The notes below the pieces were generated by a model, which ran no database searches, had not been told where the DNA came from, and saw only the letters and a list, made by a program, of their open reading frames with translations. Shown here piece by piece: positions 1,427-23,580 of a stretch of 64,000 nucleotides of DNA. The translations under genes and the position numbers were made by a program. Numbering within the stretch: position 1 is the stretch's first letter; each line of letters opens with the position of its first letter. Where the stretch lies: assembly GCA_964585475.1 (NCBI GenBank), contig CAZPDF010000004.1, positions 23,169-87,168 on the forward strand. The letters are read 5' to 3'. This DNA comes from an uncultured Candidatus Saccharibacteria bacterium (GTDB taxonomy: Bacteria; Patescibacteriota; Minisyncoccia; Sungbacterales; HO2-52-23).

Positions 1427-2965
1427 ATGATACCAATGGGTATTTTTAGCCCTGTGCCAAAATTAAAAATTCTTTTTGTGGCTCCGGAAGCGGCGCCCTT
1501 CGTTAAAGTCGGGGGTTTGGGAGAGGTTATGTTTGCCCTGCCCCGGGCCATAAGGAAACTCGGCTACGACGCGCGCCTTATGATTCCCCGGTACGCCGGA
1601 ATAGACCCGGAAAAATTCTTTTTGAAGATGGCGTACGAAGAATTGATGGTCCCCACTGACTCCCAAGAGCCGGGCCAGCCCAAGCATCTTATCTGTAACG
1701 TTAAAAAATATGAGTCGGATCCCCAAGACCGCCGCGCTCCGGTTACAACTTATTTTCTGGAAAACCGCGAGTACTACGAGCAGCGCGCGAACACTTACGG
1801 CTACGCCGACGACGCGGTCCGCTGGGCGCTTCTATCCCGAGGCGTTCTTGAATTTTTGGTCGCATCGCGCGAGTGGAAACCGGACGTGATTGTTGGCTCG
1901 GACTGGCAATCGGCCTTTCTATTAAATTATCTTCAAACAACTTACAAAAATTACGTCGGCTTAAACTCCATAGCCACGGTATTTTCCATCCACAATCTTT
2001 ACTACCAAGGCATGTTTAACCATAAATTCGTCTCGGAGATGGATTACGACTCCGGCCAGACGCCCCTTCCCGCCTTTTTTGATCCGCGCCTTTTGAAACT
2101 TAACATGATGCGGCGCGGCATAATGTATGCGGACGCCATCAACACCGTGTCTTCCTCCTACGCCCGTGAAATTATGACTCCCGAATACGGCGAGCTTTTG
2201 GATGACCTGATAAAGGAGCGGAGATCCGTGCTTTACGGAATTTTAAACGGCCTGGACTACGAACTTGTAAATCCCAAAACCGACCCGCAACTTTACGTAA
2301 ATTTTGATTCCAAAAGCATTGAAGAGCGCGCCCAAAATAAGCTGCATCTGCAGGATCGCTTCGGCCTGCCCAAAGACCCCAAAAAATTTGTAGTCGGCAT
2401 TGTTTCCCGGCTGGACGAACAAAAAGGGTTGAATCTGCTTTTCACTACCCTGGAACCCTTGCTTAAGCAGCTGGATTTCGAGCTTATCGTAGTCGGCTCC
2501 GGCGACAACCGCTTTATGTCGTTCTTTGACGAAATGGGGAAAAAATTTCCTAAGCAGGTGGCTGCCCACTTAAGTTTTGACGCAGTTCTCGCGCATACTG
2601 TTTTTGGAGGAGCGGATGCCATTTTGATCCCTTCCAAATTTGAGCCCTCCGGCCTTACCCAAATGGAAGCCATGAGGTACGGCGCGATTCCCATCGTAAG
2701 GCGCACCGGCGGACTGGCCGATACGGTCGAGGACTATGATCCTGAGAAAAATACCGGCACGGGTTTTGTTTTTAACGATTTTGAAGGACTCGCGCTGGTC
2801 ATTGCAATTACCCGGGCGTGCGAAACCTTCAAGCATAAAAATATCTGGTCAGGGCTTCAAAAACGCGCCATGGAAACGGATTTCTCCTGGGAGCAGTCCG
2901 CCAAAGAATACATAAAACTTTTCGAAAAAGCCGTGGATATTAAAAAAGGACATGTACTGGGCTAA
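1427..2965 (+). CDS. glgA: glycogen (starch) synthase, GT5
   Basis: 512 aa; N-terminal KILFVAPEAAPFVKVGGLGEV motif diagnostic of GlgA; GT-B C-terminal half. Confidence 0.85.
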   Translation: MIPMGIFSPVPKLKILFVAPEAAPFVKVGGLGEVMFALPRAIRKLGYDARLMIPRYAGIDPEKFFLKMAYEELMVPTDSQEPGQPKHLICNVKKYESDPQDRRAPVTTYFLENREYYEQRANTYGYADDAVRWALLSRGVLEFLVASREWKPDVIVGSDWQSAFLLNYLQTTYKNYVGLNSIATVFSIHNLYYQGMFNHKFVSEMDYDSGQTPLPAFFDPRLLKLNMMRRGIMYADAINTVSSSYAREIMTPEYGELLDDLIKERRSVLYGILNGLDYELVNPKTDPQLYVNFDSKSIEERAQNKLHLQDRFGLPKDPKKFVVGIVSRLDEQKGLNLLFTTLEPLLKQLDFELIVVGSGDNRFMSFFDEMGKKFPKQVAAHLSFDAVLAHTVFGGADAILIPSKFEPSGLTQMEAMRYGAIPIVRRTGGLADTVEDYDPEKNTGTGFVFNDFEGLALVIAITRACETFKHKNIWSGLQKRAMETDFSWEQSAKEYIKLFEKAVDIKKGHVLG

Positions 2966-4307
2966 TTTTCTGCATTTCTATCAGCCGCCCACGCAAAAGC
3001 CGTTTTGGATACGAAAGATAACGGCCGAGGCCTACCGCCCCATCTTGGCAGGATTAAAAAAACAGGGCCGCACCAAAATCACACTCAACATCAACGGCGT
3101 CCTGCTTGAACATTTAGACCGCTGTGGCGAGCAAGACGTTATCGGCCTAATCAAGGACTTGCTGTCGTCCAGGCAAATCGAACTTACCGGAAGCGCCAAA
3201 TTCCATCCGCTGCTTCCTTTTTTGCCGGAGCAAGAAATAGTGCGGCAGATAAAATTAAACGAAGGCACTCTCCGAAAGTATCTCGGAGCTCTTTGGCGCC
3301 CTGAAGGATTCTTTCCTCCGGAGATGGGTTTGAACAAAAAAGTTGCGGAGATTGCCTGCAAATTGGGTTATAAATGGATAATAGCCGACGAACTTTCCAT
3401 GCCTTCCTCTTCCAGGCCCATAGATTATTCCCGGCTTTATAAAATCGCGGGGCTTGAGAATTTTTTTATTTACTTCAGGGAACGGCGCATGAGCTGGATG
3501 ATACTATCCGGCCAAGCAGGGACGGGAAAAATTCTGATCAAAAGCTTGGGGCCGCGTCTCAAGCGGCCTGAATATCTTCTTACCGCGATGGACGGCGAAA
3601 CTTTCGGGCACCATCGCCCCGGGTTGGAGCAGCTTCTCTTTGAAATGTACGAGGAAAAGGACATCCAAACTGTTTTCATTTCCGATCTGCCGGGCCTTTT
3701 TAAGAATGCCGCGGAAATAAATCCGGTTCCCTCCACTTGGGCGCTTATGGAAAAAGATTTGGAGCGCCAAAAGCCCTTTTCCAGATGGAAGGACGAAGAT
3801 AATAAAATTCACAAATTGCAATGGGAATTAACCGATTTAGCGTTGGAGGCCATTAAAAAAGCCGACGCCAAAAGCCCCTTCTTTGCGGAAGCGCGGCTGG
3901 CTCTTGACCGAGCCGTCCACTCCGACCAATATTGGTGGGCTTCGGCCCGGCCGTGGTGGTCAATGGAGATGATTGAAAAAGGCGCGAAAGAACTTTCTAG
4001 CGCGGTGCAAAAGATGCCGGGGGTTACCCAAAAGACCAAGGAGAAAGCGCGCGAGCTTTACAAATTAATAATATTTACGGCTTTCGACTGGCAGAGAGAG
4101 GGCGTGGTTGACGAACTTTCCAAAAAAGAGGATGAGGAAATAAGACAGCGGACCGATACCAGTTTTCCCAAGCTTCCTAAAAAAGAAATAGAAAAGATGA
4201 TTAAAAATTTGAGAGAGGAAATGAAACTGGTCGCAGAAAATCAGGAATTTGAGCGCGCCGCGCAAATACGCGACCGCATCGCCGAGCTTAGAAAATACGC
4301 GGAATAA
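2952..4307 (+). CDS. GH57 family glycoside hydrolase with C-terminal UVR (UvrB/C-like) domain
   Basis: 451 aa; N-terminal FLHFYQPP motif typical of GH57; C-terminus ENQEFERAAQIRDRIAELRKY matches the UVR domain; overlaps glgA stop by 14 nt. Confidence 0.7.
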   Translation: MYWANFLHFYQPPTQKPFWIRKITAEAYRPILAGLKKQGRTKITLNINGVLLEHLDRCGEQDVIGLIKDLLSSRQIELTGSAKFHPLLPFLPEQEIVRQIKLNEGTLRKYLGALWRPEGFFPPEMGLNKKVAEIACKLGYKWIIADELSMPSSSRPIDYSRLYKIAGLENFFIYFRERRMSWMILSGQAGTGKILIKSLGPRLKRPEYLLTAMDGETFGHHRPGLEQLLFEMYEEKDIQTVFISDLPGLFKNAAEINPVPSTWALMEKDLERQKPFSRWKDEDNKIHKLQWELTDLALEAIKKADAKSPFFAEARLALDRAVHSDQYWWASARPWWSMEMIEKGAKELSSAVQKMPGVTQKTKEKARELYKLIIFTAFDWQREGVVDELSKKEDEEIRQRTDTSFPKLPKKEIEKMIKNLREEMKLVAENQEFERAAQIRDRIAELRKYAE

Positions 4308-4450
4308 ACAAGATGGCTGGTACTGGTCTCTCGTTCTGGAACGCTCTTCCTTAATCTACGACTTGCTGAAACTCACAAAAGCCCGTCCCGACTATGGTTG
4401 TGGACGGGTTTTGGGTTGTAAACTAGAAATAATTATGCTATAATTAAAAT

Positions 4451-4639
4451 ATGTATAATTGGTCTACCGATGAAAAGGAACTAAAAAAATATCCGGAAGA
4501 CTACAAAATATGGCGGCTTGAACAGCTGGCCAATTTCGGGCTTAACGGAGAAAAAATAAAGTTAGAGGATTTAAAAAAATATTGGGATAAAATAAAAATT
4601 GATCCGGCGCGCAGAAAATTTCTAAACGCAATTTTATGA
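4451..4639 (+). CDS. small hypothetical protein, possible cognate partner/antitoxin of the downstream AbiEii-like gene
   Basis: 62 aa ORF; stop overlaps downstream start (ATGA); charged, no recognisable domain. Confidence 0.3.
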   Translation: MYNWSTDEKELKKYPEDYKIWRLEQLANFGLNGEKIKLEDLKKYWDKIKIDPARRKFLNAIL

Positions 4640-5298
4640 ATATCGAGGTCCTAAGCCAATTGCAGAAAGATTTTCTTGAAAAAATTGGGCGAACCCCTTA
4701 TTTAAGAGACAATTTCTATCTTACCGGAGGCACCGCTCTTGCCGCTTTTTATTTAAAGCACCGTTATTCGGAGGATTTGGATTTTTTCAGCGAAAAGGAA
4801 GTTGATATGATCAATCTTAATGTGTCGGTGGCCAAGCTTAAAACATTTCCCGGAGTAGTTAAGACGGATTTTGAGCAAAGTTATAACCGAAATTTGATCT
4901 TTTTTCATTTCAAAGAAGTCGTTCTGAAAACCGAATTCACTTTTTTCCCTTTCCCAAGAATTGAAAAAGGGGAGGCGCAATACGGGCTCTATATTGATAG
5001 CCTTTTGGATATTGCCGTAAATAAGCTTTTTACGATTTACCAAAGAAGCGCTGCGAGAGATTATATTGATTTATATTTTATATGTAAAGATGATAAATTT
5101 GAAATTGCCGATTTAATTAAAAAAGCTAAAATAAAATTTGACTGGCACGTCGACCCTTTACAGTTAGGGACGCAATTTATTAAGTCGGCCGAAGCGAAAG
5201 ATTATCCCAGAATGATAATTGATATCAAACCGGAAGAATGGCAAAATTTTTTCCTGAAAAAGGCAAAAGAGTTAAGATCAGAGGTTTTAGAATTTTAA
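4636..5298 (+). CDS. nucleotidyltransferase, AbiEii/AbiGii toxin family (DUF1814-like)
   Basis: 220 aa; N-terminal YLTGGTALAAFYLKHRYSEDLDFF resembles AbiEii-family NTase signature. Confidence 0.65.
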   Translation: MNIEVLSQLQKDFLEKIGRTPYLRDNFYLTGGTALAAFYLKHRYSEDLDFFSEKEVDMINLNVSVAKLKTFPGVVKTDFEQSYNRNLIFFHFKEVVLKTEFTFFPFPRIEKGEAQYGLYIDSLLDIAVNKLFTIYQRSAARDYIDLYFICKDDKFEIADLIKKAKIKFDWHVDPLQLGTQFIKSAEAKDYPRMIIDIKPEEWQNFFLKKAKELRSEVLEF

Positions 5299-5400
5299 CA
5301 GTGCTGCATCAAAAACTTCGCAGTATGCAGAGTCGGTAGGGAATACGCCAAAAAGCCGCATGTGTATGCGGCTTTTTGAACAATTAATTATAGGTGGCGG

Positions 5401-6474
5401 CTAGATTTTTCCGGAAAATTTTAGAAGCAGAGTCAAAATCTTTGCTTGCCAATTGAAAAAGATTAACGCCACCATAAACAATATCAGTAGCGATGCGTAT
5501 GCCGCATGCAGGAGATGCTGTTTTCTTACCTCAACCGCTACGGCAAGCAGGAATGAGGCGGAAACAACCGCTCCAAGCAGGAAATAAAGCATCCCGAGGA
5601 TCTTCCCGGGCGAGACAATAAGCCGTTCAATGAAAGAGGCATATCGCAAGACGGGCAAAGGAGAAACTAGCGGAGAAATCTCATTTTCAGCGCTCTCCAG
5701 AACTTTCATCACGATAAGCGATTCGTCTTCATAAACTTTTTTAATACCCTCCTTGAGATTCACGTTCACCCCGTTACTGCTTGCAGTAACGGGGCCCACC
5801 GCCTCTCCCGCAACCCGCAACTCTTCCGCCCCATTCGCTTTAGCTGGAATGGTCTCAACCACAGTTTTTGCCAACTCCGGAAGAGGATCCGCCGTTGTTT
5901 GGACAAAGGGAAGAAACGGATGGCCAAACATCTGGACCACAAATAATGTCTCTTTTCCCTGGTAATTACCTCGCGCAGCCGCAATGCCAATTTCGGTGAA
6001 TTTATAGCCCAAAATGTTTGCACGATGTCTAGGAGAATTGAGCCATGCCTTGTTCACCGCTCCGGAGTCCACGAAATCCACCGCCAGATTCTCCCCTGCC
6101 GCGGAAAATAGATATCCGGCCTCGCCAAACCAATGCCACGGCGTAAGGCCGTCCGGGCTAGTATGGGAGAAATATCCGTTTTTAGCCATGTCTTCTGCTT
6201 TGAGCAGGGCCGCTTTTTCAAGAAGCGAATTTATTTTAAGCGGCGCAAGACCGTTTTCCTCTCTGCTTTCATTTGTAAAATCAACCAAAACCCGAGGAAG
6301 AATCGCGGCGGTTAGATCCAACCGGCTCAAGAGAACGGACTGAAAACTCGTTCCGATAAGGAGCAGGACAGCAACAATTGAAAGCCGGAAAATGCTTGCC
6401 CTTCTTAGTAAATGCGGCTGGTATTCATTTGCTTCATGCGGAATAAAATATTTTCGCAGAATTCTCTTGTTCAT
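5401..6474 (-). CDS. CAP/SCP (PR-1-like) domain protein, membrane anchored
   Basis: 357 aa; N-terminal TM; CAP-like region NGYFSHTSPDG..GENLA....AWLNSPRHRANIL; C-terminal TM helices. Confidence 0.6.
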   Translation of the reverse strand: MNKRILRKYFIPHEANEYQPHLLRRASIFRLSIVAVLLLIGTSFQSVLLSRLDLTAAILPRVLVDFTNESREENGLAPLKINSLLEKAALLKAEDMAKNGYFSHTSPDGLTPWHWFGEAGYLFSAAGENLAVDFVDSGAVNKAWLNSPRHRANILGYKFTEIGIAAARGNYQGKETLFVVQMFGHPFLPFVQTTADPLPELAKTVVETIPAKANGAEELRVAGEAVGPVTASSNGVNVNLKEGIKKVYEDESLIVMKVLESAENEISPLVSPLPVLRYASFIERLIVSPGKILGMLYFLLGAVVSASFLLAVAVEVRKQHLLHAAYASLLILFMVALIFFNWQAKILTLLLKFSGKI

Positions 6475-6667: not shown

Positions 6668-9600
6668 TTAATTCGGTGAAGCAATGAGTGCCGCAAGTTC
6701 AGCTTCAAGTTCCGCAAGTCTTTTACGGATGAGGTCAATGAGTTTCAATTTTAATTCTGCAATCTTTACACGGATTTCTTGAATCAATTCCTCGCGACTC
6801 GCTGTAACACCCAACACCTGTCCGGATGAAGCGGGAGGAACAAATAAGGCTGTCCCGTCAGGCATATATAATGCCGTCCCTGATATAATCCCGCCGCCGC
6901 CTCCGCCACCACCGCCTCCACCGCCGCCTCCTCCTGAAGACGGCGCAGGTGTCGTAAAGGATTGCTCGCCGCCAACTGATTCCGGTGATGCCGAGGAGAT
7001 AGTGCGATAGAAGTAAGTGGTGCCCGCAGCAAGACCGCTCACGGAAACGCTGTGGTCCGTTACCTTCGGATCCTCGTCCAACGTCGCCGTGGAATTCGCG
7101 TACCCGTAGTTCGGCGCGGAATCAAGTACGGGGTGCGAAACGGTGTCGTAAATCACGCGACTCGTGCCCGGGAAATCCGTTGTCCACTGAATGGTCACCG
7201 ATGTTTGCTCCGCTTCTGTCGCCACCTCTTCGCTGATAACGAGCACTCGTTGATGATTGCCGAAATCAAGCGGATGATCATTTGCATCCGTATTCACATT
7301 TTGGCCACTTATTTCAATTTCAACAAATACATCAAAGAATGAGGCGCGATTGAGATCGGGAGAACTGTCAATGCGGTAAGTAATGTCAAAAAATGAATCT
7401 ACGACTGGGGCGGGATTGGTCGCGTTCCATCCATCGCTATTTCCCTCGAAAACTTTATATTCACCCGACTGTGTAACGGGCAGAGAATACGAACCATTTG
7501 CTCCGGTGAGTGACAAGGCAATAATTTCAATCGGAATCATTTCTTGTCCTTCTCTTTGCGGCATCACCTGTCCAAGCGCTATCGGCCATTCGGCAAGTCC
7601 GGGCTCACCTTCATCCCACACGCCATCATCATTAAGATCGTTCCATTTGTGTCCGGTAATAACCGGGTAATGGAAGTTTCCGAAGTTCAGCGGATTATTG
7701 CTGAGATCAGTCGTGATCGTTCGTCCTAATCTCGGTTGAAGCTCAACGAATACATCAAAGAATGAGTCAACAACCAATGGCGGTTGCTCTGGCAAACCAA
7801 TACGATAAGTAATGTCAAAAAATGAATCTACGACTGGGGCGGGATTGGTCGCGTTCCATCCATCGCTATTTCCCTCATATACTTTGTATTCGCCGGATTC
7901 TGTTACCGGAAGAACGAATTTTCCATCGGATCCGGTAAGCGAGAGTGCTACGATTTCGATGGGGACCTGTCCGTCTTCGTTTGCGGGCCCTGTTACCAGA
8001 CCGAGCGCTACATTCCAACCTGGGAGCGCTGGCTCTTCTTTATCCCATTCGCCATCGCCATCCAAATCTTCCCATTTGTAACCAACCAGTTCAGTGCTCG
8101 TGTCGGTATTCGTAAATGTACAGGTTACGGTATCGCCTTCTTCAACCGTCACCGTCTTGCCGTTTGGCGGTTCCGCAAATCCAACTGATTCATTGTCATA
8201 CTCACAAGAAATATCGGAAAGCTCCCAACCCTCCGGCACGGTTTCTGTAATCGTGTAATCTCCTACAGCGACATCAAGGGTTCGCTCGTCGCCTCCGGAA
8301 AGAGCGAAATCTTCATGATCCGTTAATGAGAAATTAAATGATTCTCCCGCATCGTCGGGGTTCGTTATTTTGCGGACAACAATATGCCCGCCGTTAAATC
8401 GGTTGTAAAGATACGTCTCCGTATCCCCCCTATCGTCGAAAAAATTTGTACCAAACCACACCAGCACCTGTCCCAAATCCCGGTTGACTACCCTTTCATA
8501 GTATCCGTCCACGTTTTCAAGCCGCCACCCCCCTCTTTCCTCTTCGTCAATGATGTGCCATTCGTCAGGAGATTGTAGAATCTCGGAGGAAAATACCGCC
8601 GCGCCGCGGAAATTGCTTGCTTCATCACTACTGGTTTCCTTACATTCTACTATTTCTCCCGTCGTAAAAGTATTTTCGCCATCTTCATCAAGCAGAGAAT
8701 CCCCATTTTCGTCAAGAACCGGCACCGCTTCATAGAGACAGACATCCCAGCCCGGGATAACATTTCCCGTATCGTCGTCATACTTATACACCACTACAAA
8801 TGACCGCCTATTGCCGAACAGAACTTCCTCGTTTTCTCCCGGACTTAGCTCAACCCCTTGCGAGGTCTCGGTCGTCGATATCCAGCCCTGCGGAGCTTCG
8901 CCTTCTGTACCTTCTCTAACGTCATACTCGCCCGCAGGAAGACCTGTCCATTCGACTATTCCGTTCGGGTCGGTATTTTTACACTGACCCTCCCAACCCT
9001 CGGGAAAGAAAAATGAAAACAAATTATCCAAAAAACGGTCTGCGAGATCATCGGGGTAAAGGCAAATGTTTATATTCTCCACCCCCGGCTCGCCGTCGTC
9101 CCACGCGCCATCGCCATCCTGATCGTTAAATTTCTGAACCGTAATCGTGCCAAACTTCGGGGTATTGCCGAAATCAAATGATTCGGTGCCGTTAATAACT
9201 TCTCCATTTTCAACGGTGACTTCCCACCCCCACGGAGCATAATCTTCATTTTCATCGCACTCTACTGCGCCTGACGTATTCTCGGTCGGGTAAGTTTGCG
9301 TCCAGTTTACTTCCGCCGTTTCACAAACGATAAAAGTGCCGTTTGAAAGATCGCTAAATTCATACGCATAATCCTCCCCGTTCGTATTCGCGGAATCTTC
9401 CTCGTCGCCATTCTCGTCAACTAACGAGATCTCCCAACCCGCGATACCCTGGTCGCCATCATCCCTCGCGCCGCCGTTGCCATTGACATCATAGAACTTG
9501 TAACCGGAGATTGTGTCGTGCGCTTCACCGTTTTCGTGCTGGTCCGCCAGTACAAAATTATTAGAAAATAAAACGGCGCCGAAAACAGCGACTGTTATAA

Positions 9601-9760
9601 ATAAACTTGTAGCAATCAGGTGCTTCGGTCGCCAATGAGTAATCCTACAAAGATAAAAATCGATTGAACGAGATGTATTGTTACGTTTAAAATGAGATAA
9701 ATTTATGATTCTATTACTGCCGGAACCCGCTATTACATCAGAAATGATTTTCCTGCTCAT
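6668..9760 (-). CDS. large cell-surface protein with SdrD-B/Cna-B-like Ca-binding repeats, FN3-like region, (Gly)16 tract and C-terminal coiled coil
   Basis: 1030 aa; N-terminal TM/signal; repeated Y/HKW.DL..DG.WD..EPG..GW motifs; two near-identical segments (..NSDGWNATNPAPVVDSFFDITYRI..); GGGGGGGGGGGGGGGG; LKLKLIDLIRKRLAELEAELAAL tail. Confidence 0.6.
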   Translation of the reverse strand: MSRKIISDVIAGSGSNRIINLSHFKRNNTSRSIDFYLCRITHWRPKHLIATSLFITVAVFGAVLFSNNFVLADQHENGEAHDTISGYKFYDVNGNGGARDDGDQGIAGWEISLVDENGDEEDSANTNGEDYAYEFSDLSNGTFIVCETAEVNWTQTYPTENTSGAVECDENEDYAPWGWEVTVENGEVINGTESFDFGNTPKFGTITVQKFNDQDGDGAWDDGEPGVENINICLYPDDLADRFLDNLFSFFFPEGWEGQCKNTDPNGIVEWTGLPAGEYDVREGTEGEAPQGWISTTETSQGVELSPGENEEVLFGNRRSFVVVYKYDDDTGNVIPGWDVCLYEAVPVLDENGDSLLDEDGENTFTTGEIVECKETSSDEASNFRGAAVFSSEILQSPDEWHIIDEEERGGWRLENVDGYYERVVNRDLGQVLVWFGTNFFDDRGDTETYLYNRFNGGHIVVRKITNPDDAGESFNFSLTDHEDFALSGGDERTLDVAVGDYTITETVPEGWELSDISCEYDNESVGFAEPPNGKTVTVEEGDTVTCTFTNTDTSTELVGYKWEDLDGDGEWDKEEPALPGWNVALGLVTGPANEDGQVPIEIVALSLTGSDGKFVLPVTESGEYKVYEGNSDGWNATNPAPVVDSFFDITYRIGLPEQPPLVVDSFFDVFVELQPRLGRTITTDLSNNPLNFGNFHYPVITGHKWNDLNDDGVWDEGEPGLAEWPIALGQVMPQREGQEMIPIEIIALSLTGANGSYSLPVTQSGEYKVFEGNSDGWNATNPAPVVDSFFDITYRIDSSPDLNRASFFDVFVEIEISGQNVNTDANDHPLDFGNHQRVLVISEEVATEAEQTSVTIQWTTDFPGTSRVIYDTVSHPVLDSAPNYGYANSTATLDEDPKVTDHSVSVSGLAAGTTYFYRTISSASPESVGGEQSFTTPAPSSGGGGGGGGGGGGGGGIISGTALYMPDGTALFVPPASSGQVLGVTASREELIQEIRVKIAELKLKLIDLIRKRLAELEAELAALIASPN
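7321..7880. repeat. intragenic tandem duplication (~430 bp period) inside the 1030-aa surface protein gene
   Basis: ~85 bp identical blocks starting near 7365 and 7794 (antisense ORFs 7383 and 7812 begin with the same 22 residues); flanking sequence diverged. Confidence 0.6.
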
Positions 9761-9899
9761 TAATTCGCGTTCCCCATTAAAACTGCCAAATTATTGAAGA
9801 AATAAGGCAATTTCTAAAAAAACGTCTAAATAAACATTATATTTGAGATAAGTTATGACACTTTCCCCATTTTAGCATAATAAAATAATTATGTCAAGG

Positions 9900-10990
9900 G
9901 CATGTCGTGGTTCAATAGCTTGGAATACCCCTCTGGTAAGATATGGGTATGCCATACACATCAAATCCGCGTATAGAGCGCGTCCGCATGGAAGCGGTGC
10001 GCATGGTTCAAAAAGGACATAGTACTCCGGAGGTTGCCCGTCATTTCGGGTATTCACAAAGCGCGATTGTAAAATGGGTAGGACGCGCCCGCTATCTTCC
10101 TCAAAACGCGCACCTCATTCCAACCAGGTCCTCGCGTCCGCACCATCATCCGAATGAGCTGTCATCCTATCTTGTGTCCGAGATTCTCCGGTACAGGGCA
10201 GAACGAAATCAATGCGCAGAGATTCTGTATCATCGGCTTCTGACTGACGGACTTCGGGTAAGCCTTTCCTCGGTAAAGCGGGTGCTGAAACGATTCGGGT
10301 GCAGCCGGTATTCTCAATGGAAGAAGTGGCACCAGTATCCTCCACGGCCGCTTCCGGAAATGCCCGGTATTCTCGTAGAAATTGATTCGGTGCATGAAGG
10401 ACCGCCGCAAGACAGAGTAAGCGCGTTTGCCCTCATTGACGTGCATTCCCGCTGGGGATATGCGGAGCCGACATGGAGGGCGACGAGTCGGGCTGCGGCG
10501 CGGTTCGTATCTCATGCCAAAGGAACTGCTCCATTCCCATTTCGCACTATTCAAACAGACCACGGTTCAGAATTTTCAAAGTGGTTTACCAAAGTAGTTG
10601 AACACCATGGCGTTTCTCATCGACATTCAAGAGTACGCACACCCACTGACAATGCCCATGTGGAAAGGTTTATTCAGACGTTGCAGAAAGAATGCCTGCA
10701 CCGGATACCTAAGAACTTCCGTGCTTGGCAGAAAGAAATCCCTGAATTCCTGAATTACTACAACACCGAGAGGCCGCATATGTCATTGCAGTATCAAACT
10801 CCGTTACAATACTTAAAAACTATTCCAAGCTATTGATTAGAGAACAGGGCATCACAGAGAAGGTAAACCGTACAATGATTAAGAGCCCATGGAAGACTAA
10901 ATACTAATTTTACCCAAGACGCGCGGATAGGTCAACTGTGCGCTTTAGATCACCCCGGGAGTACCAGATTTTGTCACATATTGCTTAACA
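9900..10990 (+). mobile_element. putative IS481-family insertion sequence (ends not resolved)
   Basis: Transposase ORF with short non-coding flanks; I could not find convincing terminal inverted repeats, so boundaries are approximate. Confidence 0.35.
9943..10836 (+). CDS. IS481-family transposase (DDE/rve integrase core)
   Basis: 297 aa; N-terminal HTH (HSTPEVARHFGYSQSAIVKW), rve-like core IQTDHGSEF.. and downstream conserved E; GC-richer than flanks. Confidence 0.8.
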   Translation: MGMPYTSNPRIERVRMEAVRMVQKGHSTPEVARHFGYSQSAIVKWVGRARYLPQNAHLIPTRSSRPHHHPNELSSYLVSEILRYRAERNQCAEILYHRLLTDGLRVSLSSVKRVLKRFGCSRYSQWKKWHQYPPRPLPEMPGILVEIDSVHEGPPQDRVSAFALIDVHSRWGYAEPTWRATSRAAARFVSHAKGTAPFPFRTIQTDHGSEFSKWFTKVVEHHGVSHRHSRVRTPTDNAHVERFIQTLQKECLHRIPKNFRAWQKEIPEFLNYYNTERPHMSLQYQTPLQYLKTIPSY

Positions 10991-11045: not shown

Positions 11046-11417
11046 ATGAATCAAGAAAATACCGAATATCTATTCAAGAATTTTCCTTTTTTCCATCCCG
11101 AAACTCCGTTGACGGAATCTCTCATGGCATTCGGGTTTGAGTGCGGAGATGGTTGGTTTATCCTAATCAAAGAGCTATGCGAAAAGCTGAAGGCCCTAAA
11201 GCTCAAAGATTTTAGGGTGGTCCAGGTTAAAGAAAAATACGGGGGGCTCCGTTTCTATACCGGTTCAATTGAAACCAAAAAGGCCGACGAAGTATTCCGC
11301 CTCATAGAAGAAGCCGGGGGAAAAAGTTATACTATTTGTGAAGCATGCGGCCAACCGGGCCAACCGAATGAAGATGGTTGGATAGCAACTCTCTGTGAAA
11401 GTTGTAGAAAAAAATAA
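11046..11417 (+). CDS. small hypothetical protein with C-terminal CxxC...CxxC zinc-ribbon
   Basis: 123 aa; CEACG...CESCRKK; SD-like AAGGGG upstream; followed by strong terminator. Confidence 0.5.
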   Translation: MNQENTEYLFKNFPFFHPETPLTESLMAFGFECGDGWFILIKELCEKLKALKLKDFRVVQVKEKYGGLRFYTGSIETKKADEVFRLIEEAGGKSYTICEACGQPGQPNEDGWIATLCESCRKK

Positions 11418-11502: not shown

Positions 11503-11584
11503 ATCCGGGACACACCGCTACGTTTGAAGTAGCGGCTGTGGGATGTTCTCTACAAAATCTCACTTGAGAAAGGGGGTGTACCCG

Positions 11585-13003
11585 ATGCTCTGGACCGTAG
11601 TATTTTCGGTTGTATCTGTTGCCGCGGCCGGCCTTCTCATCAAATTCCTGCTTGACCGATCAAGCCATCCGGCCGAGATCACGTGGCAGGAATTCGGCAT
11701 CGGCTTAGCCGTTGCCACGATCGTCATCTCCCCGCTGGTCGGCTGGGCAGGTTTCCGAGTGGCGCGTTCCAACAACGTCACCTTCACCGAATACTGGAAC
11801 GGTTGGGAACTTGAGGCAGTGAAGCAAGATATTTCCTGCACGCGTGACGGCTCCTGTAGCCGTACTTACGACTGCGATCCCTACCTCGTTCCGGTGTTCT
11901 ACCCATGCAACTGCGACGACAAGGGCAACTGCAGTACCTGCATGACGCTAGAAACCCGTTATCACTCTTGCCCCTACGCCACGGTGGAGTCAACCTATAC
12001 CATCCAGACGACGCTCGGCGACTACGAAATAGACGCTCACCGCTTTCCAGAAAACGCCCAGTCCCATCGCTGGCGCAAGTCCGTAGCAATCCCGCCGGGG
12101 CTTATCAGCCGGGTTGGCGAAGGCGCGCCGCCATTCTGGAGCGAGGCCAAAATCAGGATCGAGAGAAACGCTCCAGGTCCGGTTAGCACACGGAAGGACT
12201 ATGAGAACTATATTCTCGCGTCCGACCGCACGATCCTCAAGCAGTACTCAAGCGACATCGAGCGGCTCCGGCAGGCAAACCTCCTCCCGCCAATCGCATC
12301 CAGCATCCTCGATTTCTACCTTGCCGACAAAGTGGCATTTGTTGGATACAGGCCGGAGGATCCTGTTGCCTGGCAACGAGCGCTCCGCTACCTAAACGCC
12401 GCCCTCGGCTCCGAACTTCAAGGCGATCTCCATCTCGTGATCGTCGGCGATCCTTCTGCCAACCAGAATCCAGACGTTTATGCTCTGGCCCTCCGGGCAT
12501 ACTGGCAGAACCGCTCGGTCTTCGAGAAAAACTGCCTTGCCAAAAACGGCATAGTCGTAGTCGTTGGCACCGCCGACAACAAAACCACGTCCTGGGCGCG
12601 GGCCTTCACCGGCATGCCAATGGGAAATGAGGCGCTAACGGTTGCCATCCGAAATGAACTCAAGGCACAGCCGCTTACGCCCGAGCGCATCTTAGGAGGG
12701 GTGCGCGGAGAGTTTCGTTTAAGCAACGGCAAAAAGGATGTACAAGGACTCCACGGGAAAGGCGCAATCGAGCGCATCCTCTGGGGCCTTGATGAACCCG
12801 CCACAAAGTTTACCCGTATCAGCATGCGGGCGGACGATCCCGGCGGAGTCGGAAGCGGATATCTCTATCTCTTGGGAGAGGTAGAGCTCACCTCCAAGCA
12901 ACTGGCCGCCATCGCCTTTCTCGAATTTCTGGCATCGCTCGGCGTATGGCTTGCCGCGGCGCTCATCGGAGAACGCCGCAAACGCTCCCGGGCAGGAAAC
13001 TGA
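11585..13003 (+). CDS. hypothetical multi-pass membrane protein with Cys-rich extracytoplasmic segment
   Basis: ORF open from 11543; AAGGGGG SD 8 nt before ATG 11585 (MLWTVVFSVV..); TM helices at both ends; CTRDGSCSRTYDCDPY..CNCDDKGNCSTC cluster; high GC. Confidence 0.5.
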   Translation: MLWTVVFSVVSVAAAGLLIKFLLDRSSHPAEITWQEFGIGLAVATIVISPLVGWAGFRVARSNNVTFTEYWNGWELEAVKQDISCTRDGSCSRTYDCDPYLVPVFYPCNCDDKGNCSTCMTLETRYHSCPYATVESTYTIQTTLGDYEIDAHRFPENAQSHRWRKSVAIPPGLISRVGEGAPPFWSEAKIRIERNAPGPVSTRKDYENYILASDRTILKQYSSDIERLRQANLLPPIASSILDFYLADKVAFVGYRPEDPVAWQRALRYLNAALGSELQGDLHLVIVGDPSANQNPDVYALALRAYWQNRSVFEKNCLAKNGIVVVVGTADNKTTSWARAFTGMPMGNEALTVAIRNELKAQPLTPERILGGVRGEFRLSNGKKDVQGLHGKGAIERILWGLDEPATKFTRISMRADDPGGVGSGYLYLLGEVELTSKQLAAIAFLEFLASLGVWLAAALIGERRKRSRAGN

Positions 13004-18220: not shown

Positions 18221-18281
18221 CTCCCCGGGTAGGGATCGAACCTACGACCGTCGCCTTAACAGGGCGCCGCTCTTCCGGGGC
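18221..18281 (-). pseudogene. tRNA-Asn(GTT)-like, 61 nt, lacks D-arm (probable tRNA pseudogene or fragment)
   Basis: Acceptor GCCCCGG/CCGGGGA, anticodon loop CTGTTAA, T-arm GGTTCGATCCC present; ~11 nt of D-stem/D-loop absent relative to the neighbouring tRNA-Asn. Confidence 0.45.
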
Positions 18282-21585: not shown

Positions 21586-21629
21586 ACAATGCTTATTCTT
21601 AACAATAGAGGCGGGGTTCGCTGCGAAAT

Positions 21630-21716
21630 CGGAAGGGGCGAGATTCGAACTCGCGGTACCATTTCTGGTACACGGTCTTTCCAGGACCGCCAGTTAAACC
21701 GCTCCTGCACCCTTCC
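21630..21716 (-). tRNA. tRNA-Ser (anticodon GGA), long variable arm
   Basis: 87 nt; acceptor GGAAGGG/CCCTTCC; anticodon stem CGGTC/GACCG with loop CTGGAAA; variable arm GTACC..GGTAC; T-arm GCGAGTTCGAATCTCGC. Confidence 0.8.
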
Positions 21717-21832
21717 ATTCTTTATATTTTTCGGTGATTCTCGGGTTGGATGAGCCAAATGTACGAGGATATCTTACCACAAAATCTTTGTTGTACAAAT
21801 AGATTCTCCTCCCTCTATCTGCAATATGCGGC

Positions 21833-23019: not shown

Positions 23020-23580
23020 CTAAAATTTAACTTTCACCGGTTCTTTCGCCGCTTCCTCTTCAAGGTCGAAAAATTCTCTCGCGGAGAATCCAAATGACTG
23101 CGCGATCGTGTTAGAAGGGAAGGACTGAATCATAGTGTTATAATTCAGGATACTGGCATTATAAAATCGGCGGGCGGACTGGATTTTATTTTCCGTATCC
23201 GCAAGTTCTCTCTGCAAATCCAAAAAATTGGCATTGGCCTTAAGATCCGGGTAGTTTTCCGAAACTGCAAAAAGGGTTTTAAGGGTGCTGGTAAGCATAT
23301 TCTCGGCCTGCGTATGCTCTTTCGCGGTTTTAGCACCCATGGCGGCGGAGCGCGCCTCGGTTACATTTTCAAACACGCCCTTCTCATGCGCGGCATAGCC
23401 CTTAACCGTCTCCATCACGTTCGGAATAAGATCGTACCTCCTCTTCATCTGCACTTCAATATCGGACCAGGCCTCATCAATGCGATTGCGCCGGCTGATT
23501 AGGGAATTATAAATAAATATCGCCGAGAGAATAAGAACCCCGATGATGCTTAATATAATGTATAGCGTGGGCATAACCAA
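23020..23580 (-). CDS. lemA: LemA family protein
   Basis: 186 aa; N-terminal TM then LemA-like YNSLISRRNRIDEAWSDIEVQMKRRYDLIPNVMETVKGYAAHEK.. Confidence 0.85.
   Translation of the reverse strand: MVMPTLYIILSIIGVLILSAIFIYNSLISRRNRIDEAWSDIEVQMKRRYDLIPNVMETVKGYAAHEKGVFENVTEARSAAMGAKTAKEHTQAENMLTSTLKTLFAVSENYPDLKANANFLDLQRELADTENKIQSARRFYNASILNYNTMIQSFPSNTIAQSFGFSAREFFDLEEEAAKEPVKVKF

Follow-up and report, generated by a model that had tools for sequence, protein, structure and literature searches.

The 64,000-nucleotide stretch of DNA analyzed here (the window; positions 23,169 to 87,168 of contig CAZPDF010000004.1, from an uncultured Candidatus Saccharibacteria bacterium) carries, between positions 4451 and 5298 of its forward strand, two overlapping genes that most likely constitute a toxin-antitoxin (TA) module analogous to the MenA1-MenT1 pair. 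The downstream gene encodes a 220-amino-acid (aa) nucleotidyltransferase (NTase) of the AbiEii/DUF1814 family. The upstream gene encodes a 62-aa protein of an unnamed family, which is interpreted here as a putative direct-binding antitoxin of an active NTase toxin, a reading to which we assign a probability of roughly two in three. An earlier note on this DNA had singled out the pair as an AbiEii-type enzyme with an unusually small upstream partner, located outside any mobile context next to a glycogen cluster.

The nucleotidyltransferase and its small partner

Both genes start with ATG and lie on the forward strand, the putative antitoxin gene at 4451 to 4639 and the putative toxin gene at 4636 to 5298. 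As the earlier note had described, the two open reading frames (ORFs) overlap by the four bases ATGA (4636 to 4639, forward strand), which contain the start codon of the toxin and the stop codon of its partner, an arrangement suited to translational coupling. The start of the 62-aa ORF is fixed because an in-frame TAA at 4445 to 4447 precludes a longer N terminus. No other plausible co-directional ORF is present between the pair and the gene for a GH57 glycoside hydrolase (2952 to 4307) that precedes it.

The 220-aa protein is a bona fide AbiEii/DUF1814 NTase, as had been proposed. Across residues 22 to 199 it scores 68.5 bits with the Pfam family PF08843 (AbiEii; cutoff, 22.5 bits; E = 1.1e-18); it is also matched by 21 PADLOC AbiEii models and contains the sequence YLTGGTALAAFYLKHRYSEDLDFF. 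The earlier note had staked this assignment on the NTase fold, and that fold is what the searches return. An alignment-based AlphaFold2 (AF2) model of the protein, with a predicted local distance difference test score (pLDDT) of 89.4 and a predicted template modeling score of 0.86, was compared with the Protein Data Bank (PDB) using Foldseek; the best match is JHP933 (4o8s/4ok0; E = 5e-9), followed by poly(A) polymerases, terminal uridylyltransferases (TUTases), and CCA-adding enzymes. JHP933 is, furthermore, the sole PDB sequence reached by the profile of the toxin family (E = 2.5e-7).

The four AbiEii motifs, defined as hG[GS], R..DhD, KLxxxaxR, and +DxxD (PMC3985639), were assigned in the toxin by eye from these patterns. 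Motif I corresponds to G31-G32, motif II to R43-Y44-S45-E46-D47-L48-D49, motif III to K130-L131...R137, and motif IV to R141-D142-x-x-D145. In an alignment of 20 homologues that are 58 to 90% identical (alignment A2), these motifs are invariant or at least 90% conserved. Because all four are present and invariant or nearly so, the enzyme looks catalytically competent; mutation of these motifs in AbiEii abolishes toxicity (PMC3985639). S45, which is invariant in the same alignment, occupies the position of the phosphoacceptors T65 of AbiEii (R63-S64-T65), T39 of MenT1 (where D41 is catalytic), and S78 of MenT3, a correspondence taken from the motif pattern rather than from superposition.

The upstream ORF is likewise a genuine gene. 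In a collection clustered at 90%, 327 homologues of the 62-aa protein were identified, nearly all of 62 to 70 aa and mostly from metagenome-assembled genomes of Patescibacteria, and seven residues (M1, N3, W4, W21, E24, Q25, and G30) do not vary in an alignment of 91 sequences. A profile search against 1.84 billion representatives retrieved 251 clusters at 50% identity, every one of which consists of small proteins. Nucleotide diversity at the first, second, and third codon positions (0.34, 0.20, and 0.50, respectively, over the first 36 codons) shows the pattern expected of a reading frame that is translated and held under purifying selection. The AF2 model (pLDDT of 83.4) is a compact protein of four helices, formed by residues 8 to 11, 15 to 29, 38 to 44, and 52 to 61; the invariant N terminus is flexible in the model, with a pLDDT below 50 at residues 1 to 3.

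The 62-aa protein matches no family in Pfam, PADLOC, or NCBIfam at E ≤ 1, and all database records name it "hypothetical protein"; 29 of its homologues similarly yield no AbiEi or other Pfam match at E ≤ 1. When all PDB sequences were searched with the family profile at E ≤ 10, only two unrelated matches were obtained, and Foldseek returned nothing better than E = 5.9 for the model against the PDB. The remark of the earlier note that the protein lacks an obvious helix-turn-helix (HTH) thus agrees with the Pfam, PADLOC, and PDB fold searches, and the combined negative results argue against identity with AbiEi, an HTH protein, or another known antitoxin. The family has no entry in Pfam, and the pair brings a blind spot in annotation to light.

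Pairing across loci, the cassette, and its surroundings

The toxin subfamily was scanned in one genome per GTDB species, which produced 480 confirmed loci, and the best 80 of these were examined together with the window (81 loci). In all 81, the gene next to the toxin gene on its upstream side encodes a member of the 62-aa family and is on the same strand; no toxin-only locus was seen among them, and the two ORFs overlap by 4 to 62 nucleotides (nt) in about 76. The set is not confined to Patescibacteria and takes in a Nitrospira contig and an Acidobacteria contig (L002 and L005). The pair thus displays the generic layout of a TA module, that is, adjacent and co-oriented genes, with the small gene first, inherited as a unit. 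The conservation of the 62-aa ORF in homologous loci, on which the earlier note had made its interpretation depend, is complete, and its suggestion that the small gene encodes a minimal antitoxin or partner gains support. Conversely, the partner turns out not to be unusual in size: a very small upstream gene is the rule in this toxin subfamily, and there are precedents in MenA1 (68 aa; PMC10435456) and in the DUF6922 proteins (77 to 90 aa).

Three proteins break the two-gene pattern, all of them natural fusions: P0254 (282 aa), P0358 (210 aa), and P0333 (174 aa). In P0358 and P0333, the first ∼44 to 49 residues of the small protein are joined to a toxin remnant that is devoid of the catalytic GG...RxSxDxD region. 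P0254, in contrast, is an almost full-length fusion in which the catalytic motifs are present, the first ∼20 residues of the toxin are replaced, and GGT is changed to GEGT. These proteins could represent decaying or domesticated modules or else assembly errors. The loss of the catalytic part with retention of the partner in P0358 and P0333 is the asymmetry that would be expected if the partner is an antitoxin.

The pair resides within a sharply bounded cassette. The closest relatives of the window cassette are found in Nomurabacteria and related contigs, and the only stretch of the window that is homologous to them at the DNA level is the 896-bp segment at 4409 to 5304 (forward strand), comprising the promoter and the two overlapping genes. 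In blastn comparisons, this segment aligns with positions 3963 to 4858 of one such locus (L081) at 87% identity, and likewise with L082 to L085, and the flanks remain unaligned. The cassette begins shortly ahead of the -35 hexamer and ends six bases past the stop codon of the toxin. Its GC content is 34.6%, compared with 48.4% and 48.1% in the two flanks, and GC content at third codon positions is 0.35 to 0.37 in the cassette genes versus 0.47 to 0.58 in neighboring genes. The GC content of the cassette is below that of the flanks in 77 of 78 loci. The gene neighborhoods are essentially random, with 156 different Pfam families represented among 150 immediate neighbors in 80 loci. No third gene recurs across these 80 loci, and the sole theme is occasional adjacency to DUF6922-AbiEii modules. 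In the closest relatives (L081, 738 to 4852; L082, 863 to 6663; and also L083 and L084), the cassette comes last in a TA island that includes ParE, RelB/YafQ, two DUF6922-AbiEii pairs, and Gp49(HigB)/HTH_31.

To judge from these boundaries and its composition, the unit is a discrete, apparently horizontally acquired, mobile mini-cassette. Because it forms a low-GC block, because homology is confined to 4409 to 5304, and because its neighbors elsewhere are random, its position beside glycogen genes is best regarded as incidental rather than atypical, contrary to the earlier note. An insertion sequence (IS)-type transposase with HTH_23/HTH_28 and an rve/rve_3 integrase core is encoded about 4.6 kb downstream (9943 to 10836, forward strand) and has low-GC margins (0.365 at 9601 to 10000). 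No convincing direct or inverted repeats flank positions 4409 and 5304, and thus no terminal repeats are available to explain movement. A search of sequenced plasmids and phages produced no match to the 62-aa protein and, with the toxin as the query, only two distant matches on Campylobacter plasmids.

The DUF6922 proteins (Pfam PF21956) that accompany the cassette are encoded directly upstream of, and overlapping, genes for AbiEii toxins of 207 to 213 aa on the same contigs as the closest relatives of the window cassette. Six other loci contain second AbiEii genes, each with a DUF6922 gene upstream, and tandem DUF6922-AbiEii modules flank the cassette in L025, L026, L027, L032, L053, and L063. 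The gene architecture is the same as that of the window pair, and the toxins behind DUF6922 are 30 to 32% identical to the window toxin over the full length. When the 62-aa family was compared with DUF6922 using hhalign, the probability was 55% (P = 1.2e-4), rising to 74 to 78% (P = 1.9e-5) with broader profiles, below the usual 90 to 95%. The best alignment is end to end, spanning 59 columns with a score of 30.0; in controls, reversed profiles scored 9.9, and 100 block-shuffled profiles scored 16.8 on average (standard deviation, 3.1; maximum, 26.9). Invariant residues of the two families coincide in this alignment (W4/W11, D7/D14, and G30/G35, the 62-aa family being given first), and P15 is aligned with P20. 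Compared with DUF6922, the 62-aa proteins are short of about 6 residues in the middle and of the C-terminal extension. The DUF6922 hidden Markov model, to which true DUF6922 neighbors score 45 to 58 bits, is not reached by 30 members of the 62-aa family at E ≤ 1 or by 10 distant members at E ≤ 5. The 62-aa family is therefore not a member of Pfam DUF6922 as defined; the profile comparisons suggest that it is probably a shortened, divergent branch of a DUF6922-like superfamily. No paper in the literature searched mentions DUF6922.

Expression signals are also part of the cassette. A promoter scan identified a -35-like hexamer, TTGTAA (4416 to 4421, forward strand), separated by a 17-nt spacer from TATAAT (10 of 12 matches), which is preceded by TG and hence forms an extended -10 element, TGcTATAAT (4436 to 4444, forward strand). 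The last base of this element precedes the A of the start codon by 7 nt, and because of this spacing, a leaderless mRNA starting at about 4451 is predicted. The same geometry recurs among related loci. In 44 of 76 loci, the end of a TATAAT-like hexamer (at least 5 of 6 matches) falls precisely at -7 relative to the ATG, compared with at most 6 loci for any other position; a TTGAnTTTT-like -35 element is found repeatedly; and 70 of the 76 have no Shine-Dalgarno-like motif, a sequence also missing from the toxin gene of the window. Conservation in the promoter does not reach beyond the -35 and extended -10 elements, and no operator-like palindrome or inverted repeat was detected in 4409 to 4450, which fits a partner without a DNA-binding domain as well as the lack of autoregulation reported for MenAT1. 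The conservation of leaderless-promoter geometry across phyla bears on how such cassettes stay expressible after transfer.

Other candidate signals were considered. The possibility that the TATAAT formed by codons 2 and 3 of the small gene (ATG TAT AAT TGG) is a DNA signal under constraint, for instance an internal promoter, was rejected because TAC and AAC occur there (18 of 56 and 35 of 74, respectively) at frequencies no lower than those in the toxin genes of these loci. An antisense promoter-like site within the toxin gene (5060 to 5088, reverse strand; TTTACA, 17-nt spacer, TATAAT, 11 of 12 matches) was rejected as a conserved feature: a comparable site near codons 140 to 145 is present in only 16 to 18 of the 81 loci, where it results from the conserved R-D-Y-I-D codons in their AT-rich versions. 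In total, the region has 10 promoter-like sites, compared with 2.9 ± 1.9 expected from shuffles. Outside the conserved cassette, a perfect 13-nt inverted repeat (CAAAAAGCCGCAT / ATGCGGCTTTTTG; 5349 to 5378), not called by a consensus terminator scan, is likely a bidirectional terminator common to the pair and to the convergent gene of a CAP-domain protein.

Several features of the surrounding sequence are independent of the pair. The upstream GH57 glycoside hydrolase (2952 to 4307, forward strand) has a C-terminal UvrB/UvrC (UVR) motif at residues 414 to 448 (E = 1.2e-9), a pairing of domains that is unusual in an enzyme of the glycogen-branching or amylase type. The CAP-domain protein, which has a C-terminal membrane segment (5401 to 6474, reverse strand), is encoded after a 1030-aa surface-type protein (6668 to 9760, reverse strand) that contains SdrD_B and SpaA prealbumin-like domains as well as an internally duplicated region and 15 consecutive glycines. 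An analogous Ig-like surface-type protein and a CAP gene are found downstream of the cassette in L081, in the opposite orientation and with no similarity to the window at the DNA level. At E ≤ 1e-3, Pfam gives no match for two ORFs farther downstream, 11046 to 11417 (forward strand; 123 aa, cysteine-rich) and 11543 to 13003 (forward strand; 486 aa, predicted to have membrane segments). Finally, tRNA callers differ at two positions: Rfam reports a weak second tRNA beside tRNA-Asn (18221 to 18281, reverse strand; 30.6 bits, with a gathering score of 29) that is not called by ARAGORN, and ARAGORN calls a tRNA-Ser(GGA) at 21629 to 21717 (reverse strand) that Rfam does not report at the gathering score.

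Proposed action and competing explanations

In the model that we favor, the 220-aa protein would be an active Pol-beta-type NTase toxin that, by analogy with MenT1, MenT3, MenT4, and AbiEii, probably blocks translation by adding nucleotides to the 3' ends of tRNAs. Its cognate antitoxin would be the 62-aa four-helix protein. Because this protein has no DNA-binding domain, it would most likely act post-translationally, by directly binding the toxin; binding could occlude the active site, as in a type II-like mechanism (compare MenA1), and/or drive auto-phosphorylation of Ser45, as in a type VII-like mechanism. Ser45 and the flexible, invariant N terminus of the small protein are compatible with a MenA1-like mechanism, and participation of Ser45 auto-phosphorylation in neutralization is, on this analogy, a tentative proposal that we consider somewhat doubtful. 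The operon would be driven by its own strong extended -10 promoter and transcribed into a leaderless mRNA, and translation of the toxin would depend on coupling via the ATGA overlap, such that the antitoxin is always made first. Transcriptional autoregulation is not predicted.

Several observations weigh against a TA function of the pair. MenT1 itself is non-toxic in E. coli (PMC10435456), and hence toxicity cannot be assumed for every DUF1814 enzyme. The 62-aa protein resembles no characterized antitoxin by sequence or fold, MenA1 and AbiEi included. The link to DUF6922 is at the profile-profile level only (probability of 78%), and because DUF6922 is uncharacterized, this link adds no functional evidence. 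Finally, strict co-occurrence of the two genes and their overlap are equally expected of any obligate two-subunit enzyme.

The last point leads to the most viable alternative, in which the small protein would serve the NTase as an obligatory accessory subunit, such as an activator, a substrate-specificity factor, or a phage sensor, and the pair would be a two-subunit defense or RNA-modifying enzyme rather than a classical TA module. Strict co-occurrence and translational coupling would be no less expected of any obligate heteromer. The invariant MYNWS/TxD segment at the N terminus, which the model leaves disordered, resembles an element that binds a partner or a ligand, and antitoxin-like features such as a DNA-binding domain were not detected in the small protein by Pfam or Foldseek. 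However, the overlapping small-gene-first order, the low GC content, the mobility of the cassette, and its residence in TA islands conform to the TA pattern. Moreover, P0358 and P0333 lose the catalytic part of the toxin and keep the small protein, none of the 81 loci encodes the toxin only, and all characterized upstream partners of DUF1814 toxins (AbiEi, MenA1, and MenA3) are inhibitors. An accessory subunit is therefore considered improbable.

Far less probable still is a miniature AbiE, in which the small protein would be both a DNA-binding repressor and an antitoxin that autoregulates the promoter and makes no contact with the toxin (type IV as first defined). The canonical upstream partners of AbiEii toxins are indeed winged HTH (wHTH) repressors (PMC3985639), and the strongly conserved promoter could, in principle, hold an operator. 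Yet neither Pfam nor PADLOC yields an HTH or AbiEi match for the small protein, which also has not a single fold match in the PDB, where HTH folds are abundant. Furthermore, the stretch from 4409 to 4450 contains no palindrome or operator-like repeat, its conserved bases being those of the -35 and extended -10 elements, and AbiE itself has been reinterpreted as a binding, type VII system (bioRxiv 10.64898/2026.01.19.700257). The notion of an orphaned toxin preceded by a chance or decaying frame, which the earlier note had left open and to which the "hypothetical protein" records and the missing database family of the 62-aa ORF might seem to point, is refuted by the 327 homologues, the seven invariant residues, the 251 clusters, the third-codon-position bias, the confidently predicted fold, and the presence of the small gene in 81 of 81 loci, and has a negligible probability.

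A direct-binding antitoxin thus remains the preferred interpretation of the small protein, and a more specific version of it can be formulated. Besides AbiEi/MenA3 and MenA1, the 62-aa family together with DUF6922 might make up a third class of DUF1814 antitoxins with a structure of its own, in which the invariant, flexible MYNW(S/T)xD peptide would insert beside the active site and trigger auto-phosphorylation of Ser45; this version is speculative, and we regard it as less likely than not. If it is true, self-phosphorylation brought about by the antitoxin would have arisen convergently as a general means of switching DUF1814 NTases off. The class would then be the dominant form in Patescibacteria and would travel as a leaderless, promoter-carrying mini-cassette, which current defense and TA finders count as an orphan AbiEii. 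Few defense and TA enzymes are as abundant as the DUF1814 (AbiEii/MenT) toxins, and it has recently been proposed that unrelated antitoxins all force the toxin to phosphorylate itself. A third, much smaller, and unrelated partner family would provide a clean test of this proposal, and the class to which the window pair belongs offers strict pairing with a short toxin that keeps the phosphoacceptor serine.

Comparison with known systems

Among solved structures and PDB sequences alike, none is closer to the toxin than JHP933 of Helicobacter pylori (PDB 4O8S and 4OK0), which has a TM score of 0.57 and shares the RFSEDLDF motif. The two proteins are only 21 to 23% identical, and the partner and function of JHP933 are uncharacterized. 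A JHP933-like AbiEii of 308 aa is encoded on the conjugative plasmid pCNZW441b2 of Campylobacter novaezeelandiae (L086, 828 to 2049). Its gene overlaps an upstream gene for an unrelated 110-aa hypothetical protein that has no Pfam match, another unrecognized small partner.

With AbiEi-AbiEii of Lactococcus lactis and Streptococcus agalactiae, the window pair shares PF08843, the four motifs, a bicistronic operon in which the antitoxin gene comes first, and a conserved Ser/Thr phosphoacceptor; an auto-phosphorylation off-switch has been reported for AbiEi-AbiEii too (bioRxiv 10.64898/2026.01.19.700257). The partners differ fundamentally. AbiEi is a two-domain wHTH repressor of roughly 200 aa (COG5340) that autoregulates via inverted repeats, whereas the partner in the window has 62 aa, no HTH match, and no detectable operator. 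The two hallmarks of AbiE are thus missing: there is no AbiEi (COG5340 or AbiEi_1-4, with a wHTH and a C-terminal domain), the 62-aa protein being too short for two domains, and there is no inverted-repeat operator. In addition, AbiEii is larger than the 220-aa toxin. Detection of AbiE that requires AbiEi presumably labels such loci as orphan toxins; if so, a complete module goes unrecognized in hundreds of Patescibacteria genomes.

The nearest functional parallel is MenA1-MenT1 (Rv0078B-Rv0078A) of Mycobacterium tuberculosis, in which a short DUF1814 NTase is likewise encoded behind a very small helical partner without a DNA-binding domain. MenA1 (68 aa) binds MenT1, blocks its active site, and induces its auto-phosphorylation, and the pair is not autoregulated (PMC10435456, PMC11375011). 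The phosphoacceptor of MenT1 is a Thr/Ser two residues before the first catalytic Asp (PMC10435456, PMC11375011), and the window toxin has an equivalent, invariant S45-x-D47. The likeness does not extend to homology of the partners: no sequence or fold similarity between MenA1 (PDB 8AN5) and the 62-aa protein was found in the PDB profile search or with Foldseek. MenA1 consists of a long and a short helix in a V shape, whereas the 62-aa model is a compact four-helix protein. MenT1, MenT3, and MenT4 are not reached by the profile of the window toxin at E ≤ 1 to 10. The MenA1 family is, moreover, tiny (21 homologues reported), in contrast to the hundreds of members, mostly from Patescibacteria, of the 62-aa family. 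Lacking AbiEi, the system is not AbiE in the strict sense, and, its partner being unrelated to MenA1, it is not of the MenAT1 type by homology either. The window pair instead represents a widespread, unnamed small-partner class of DUF1814 modules that is concentrated in Patescibacteria and is not an oddity of one genome.

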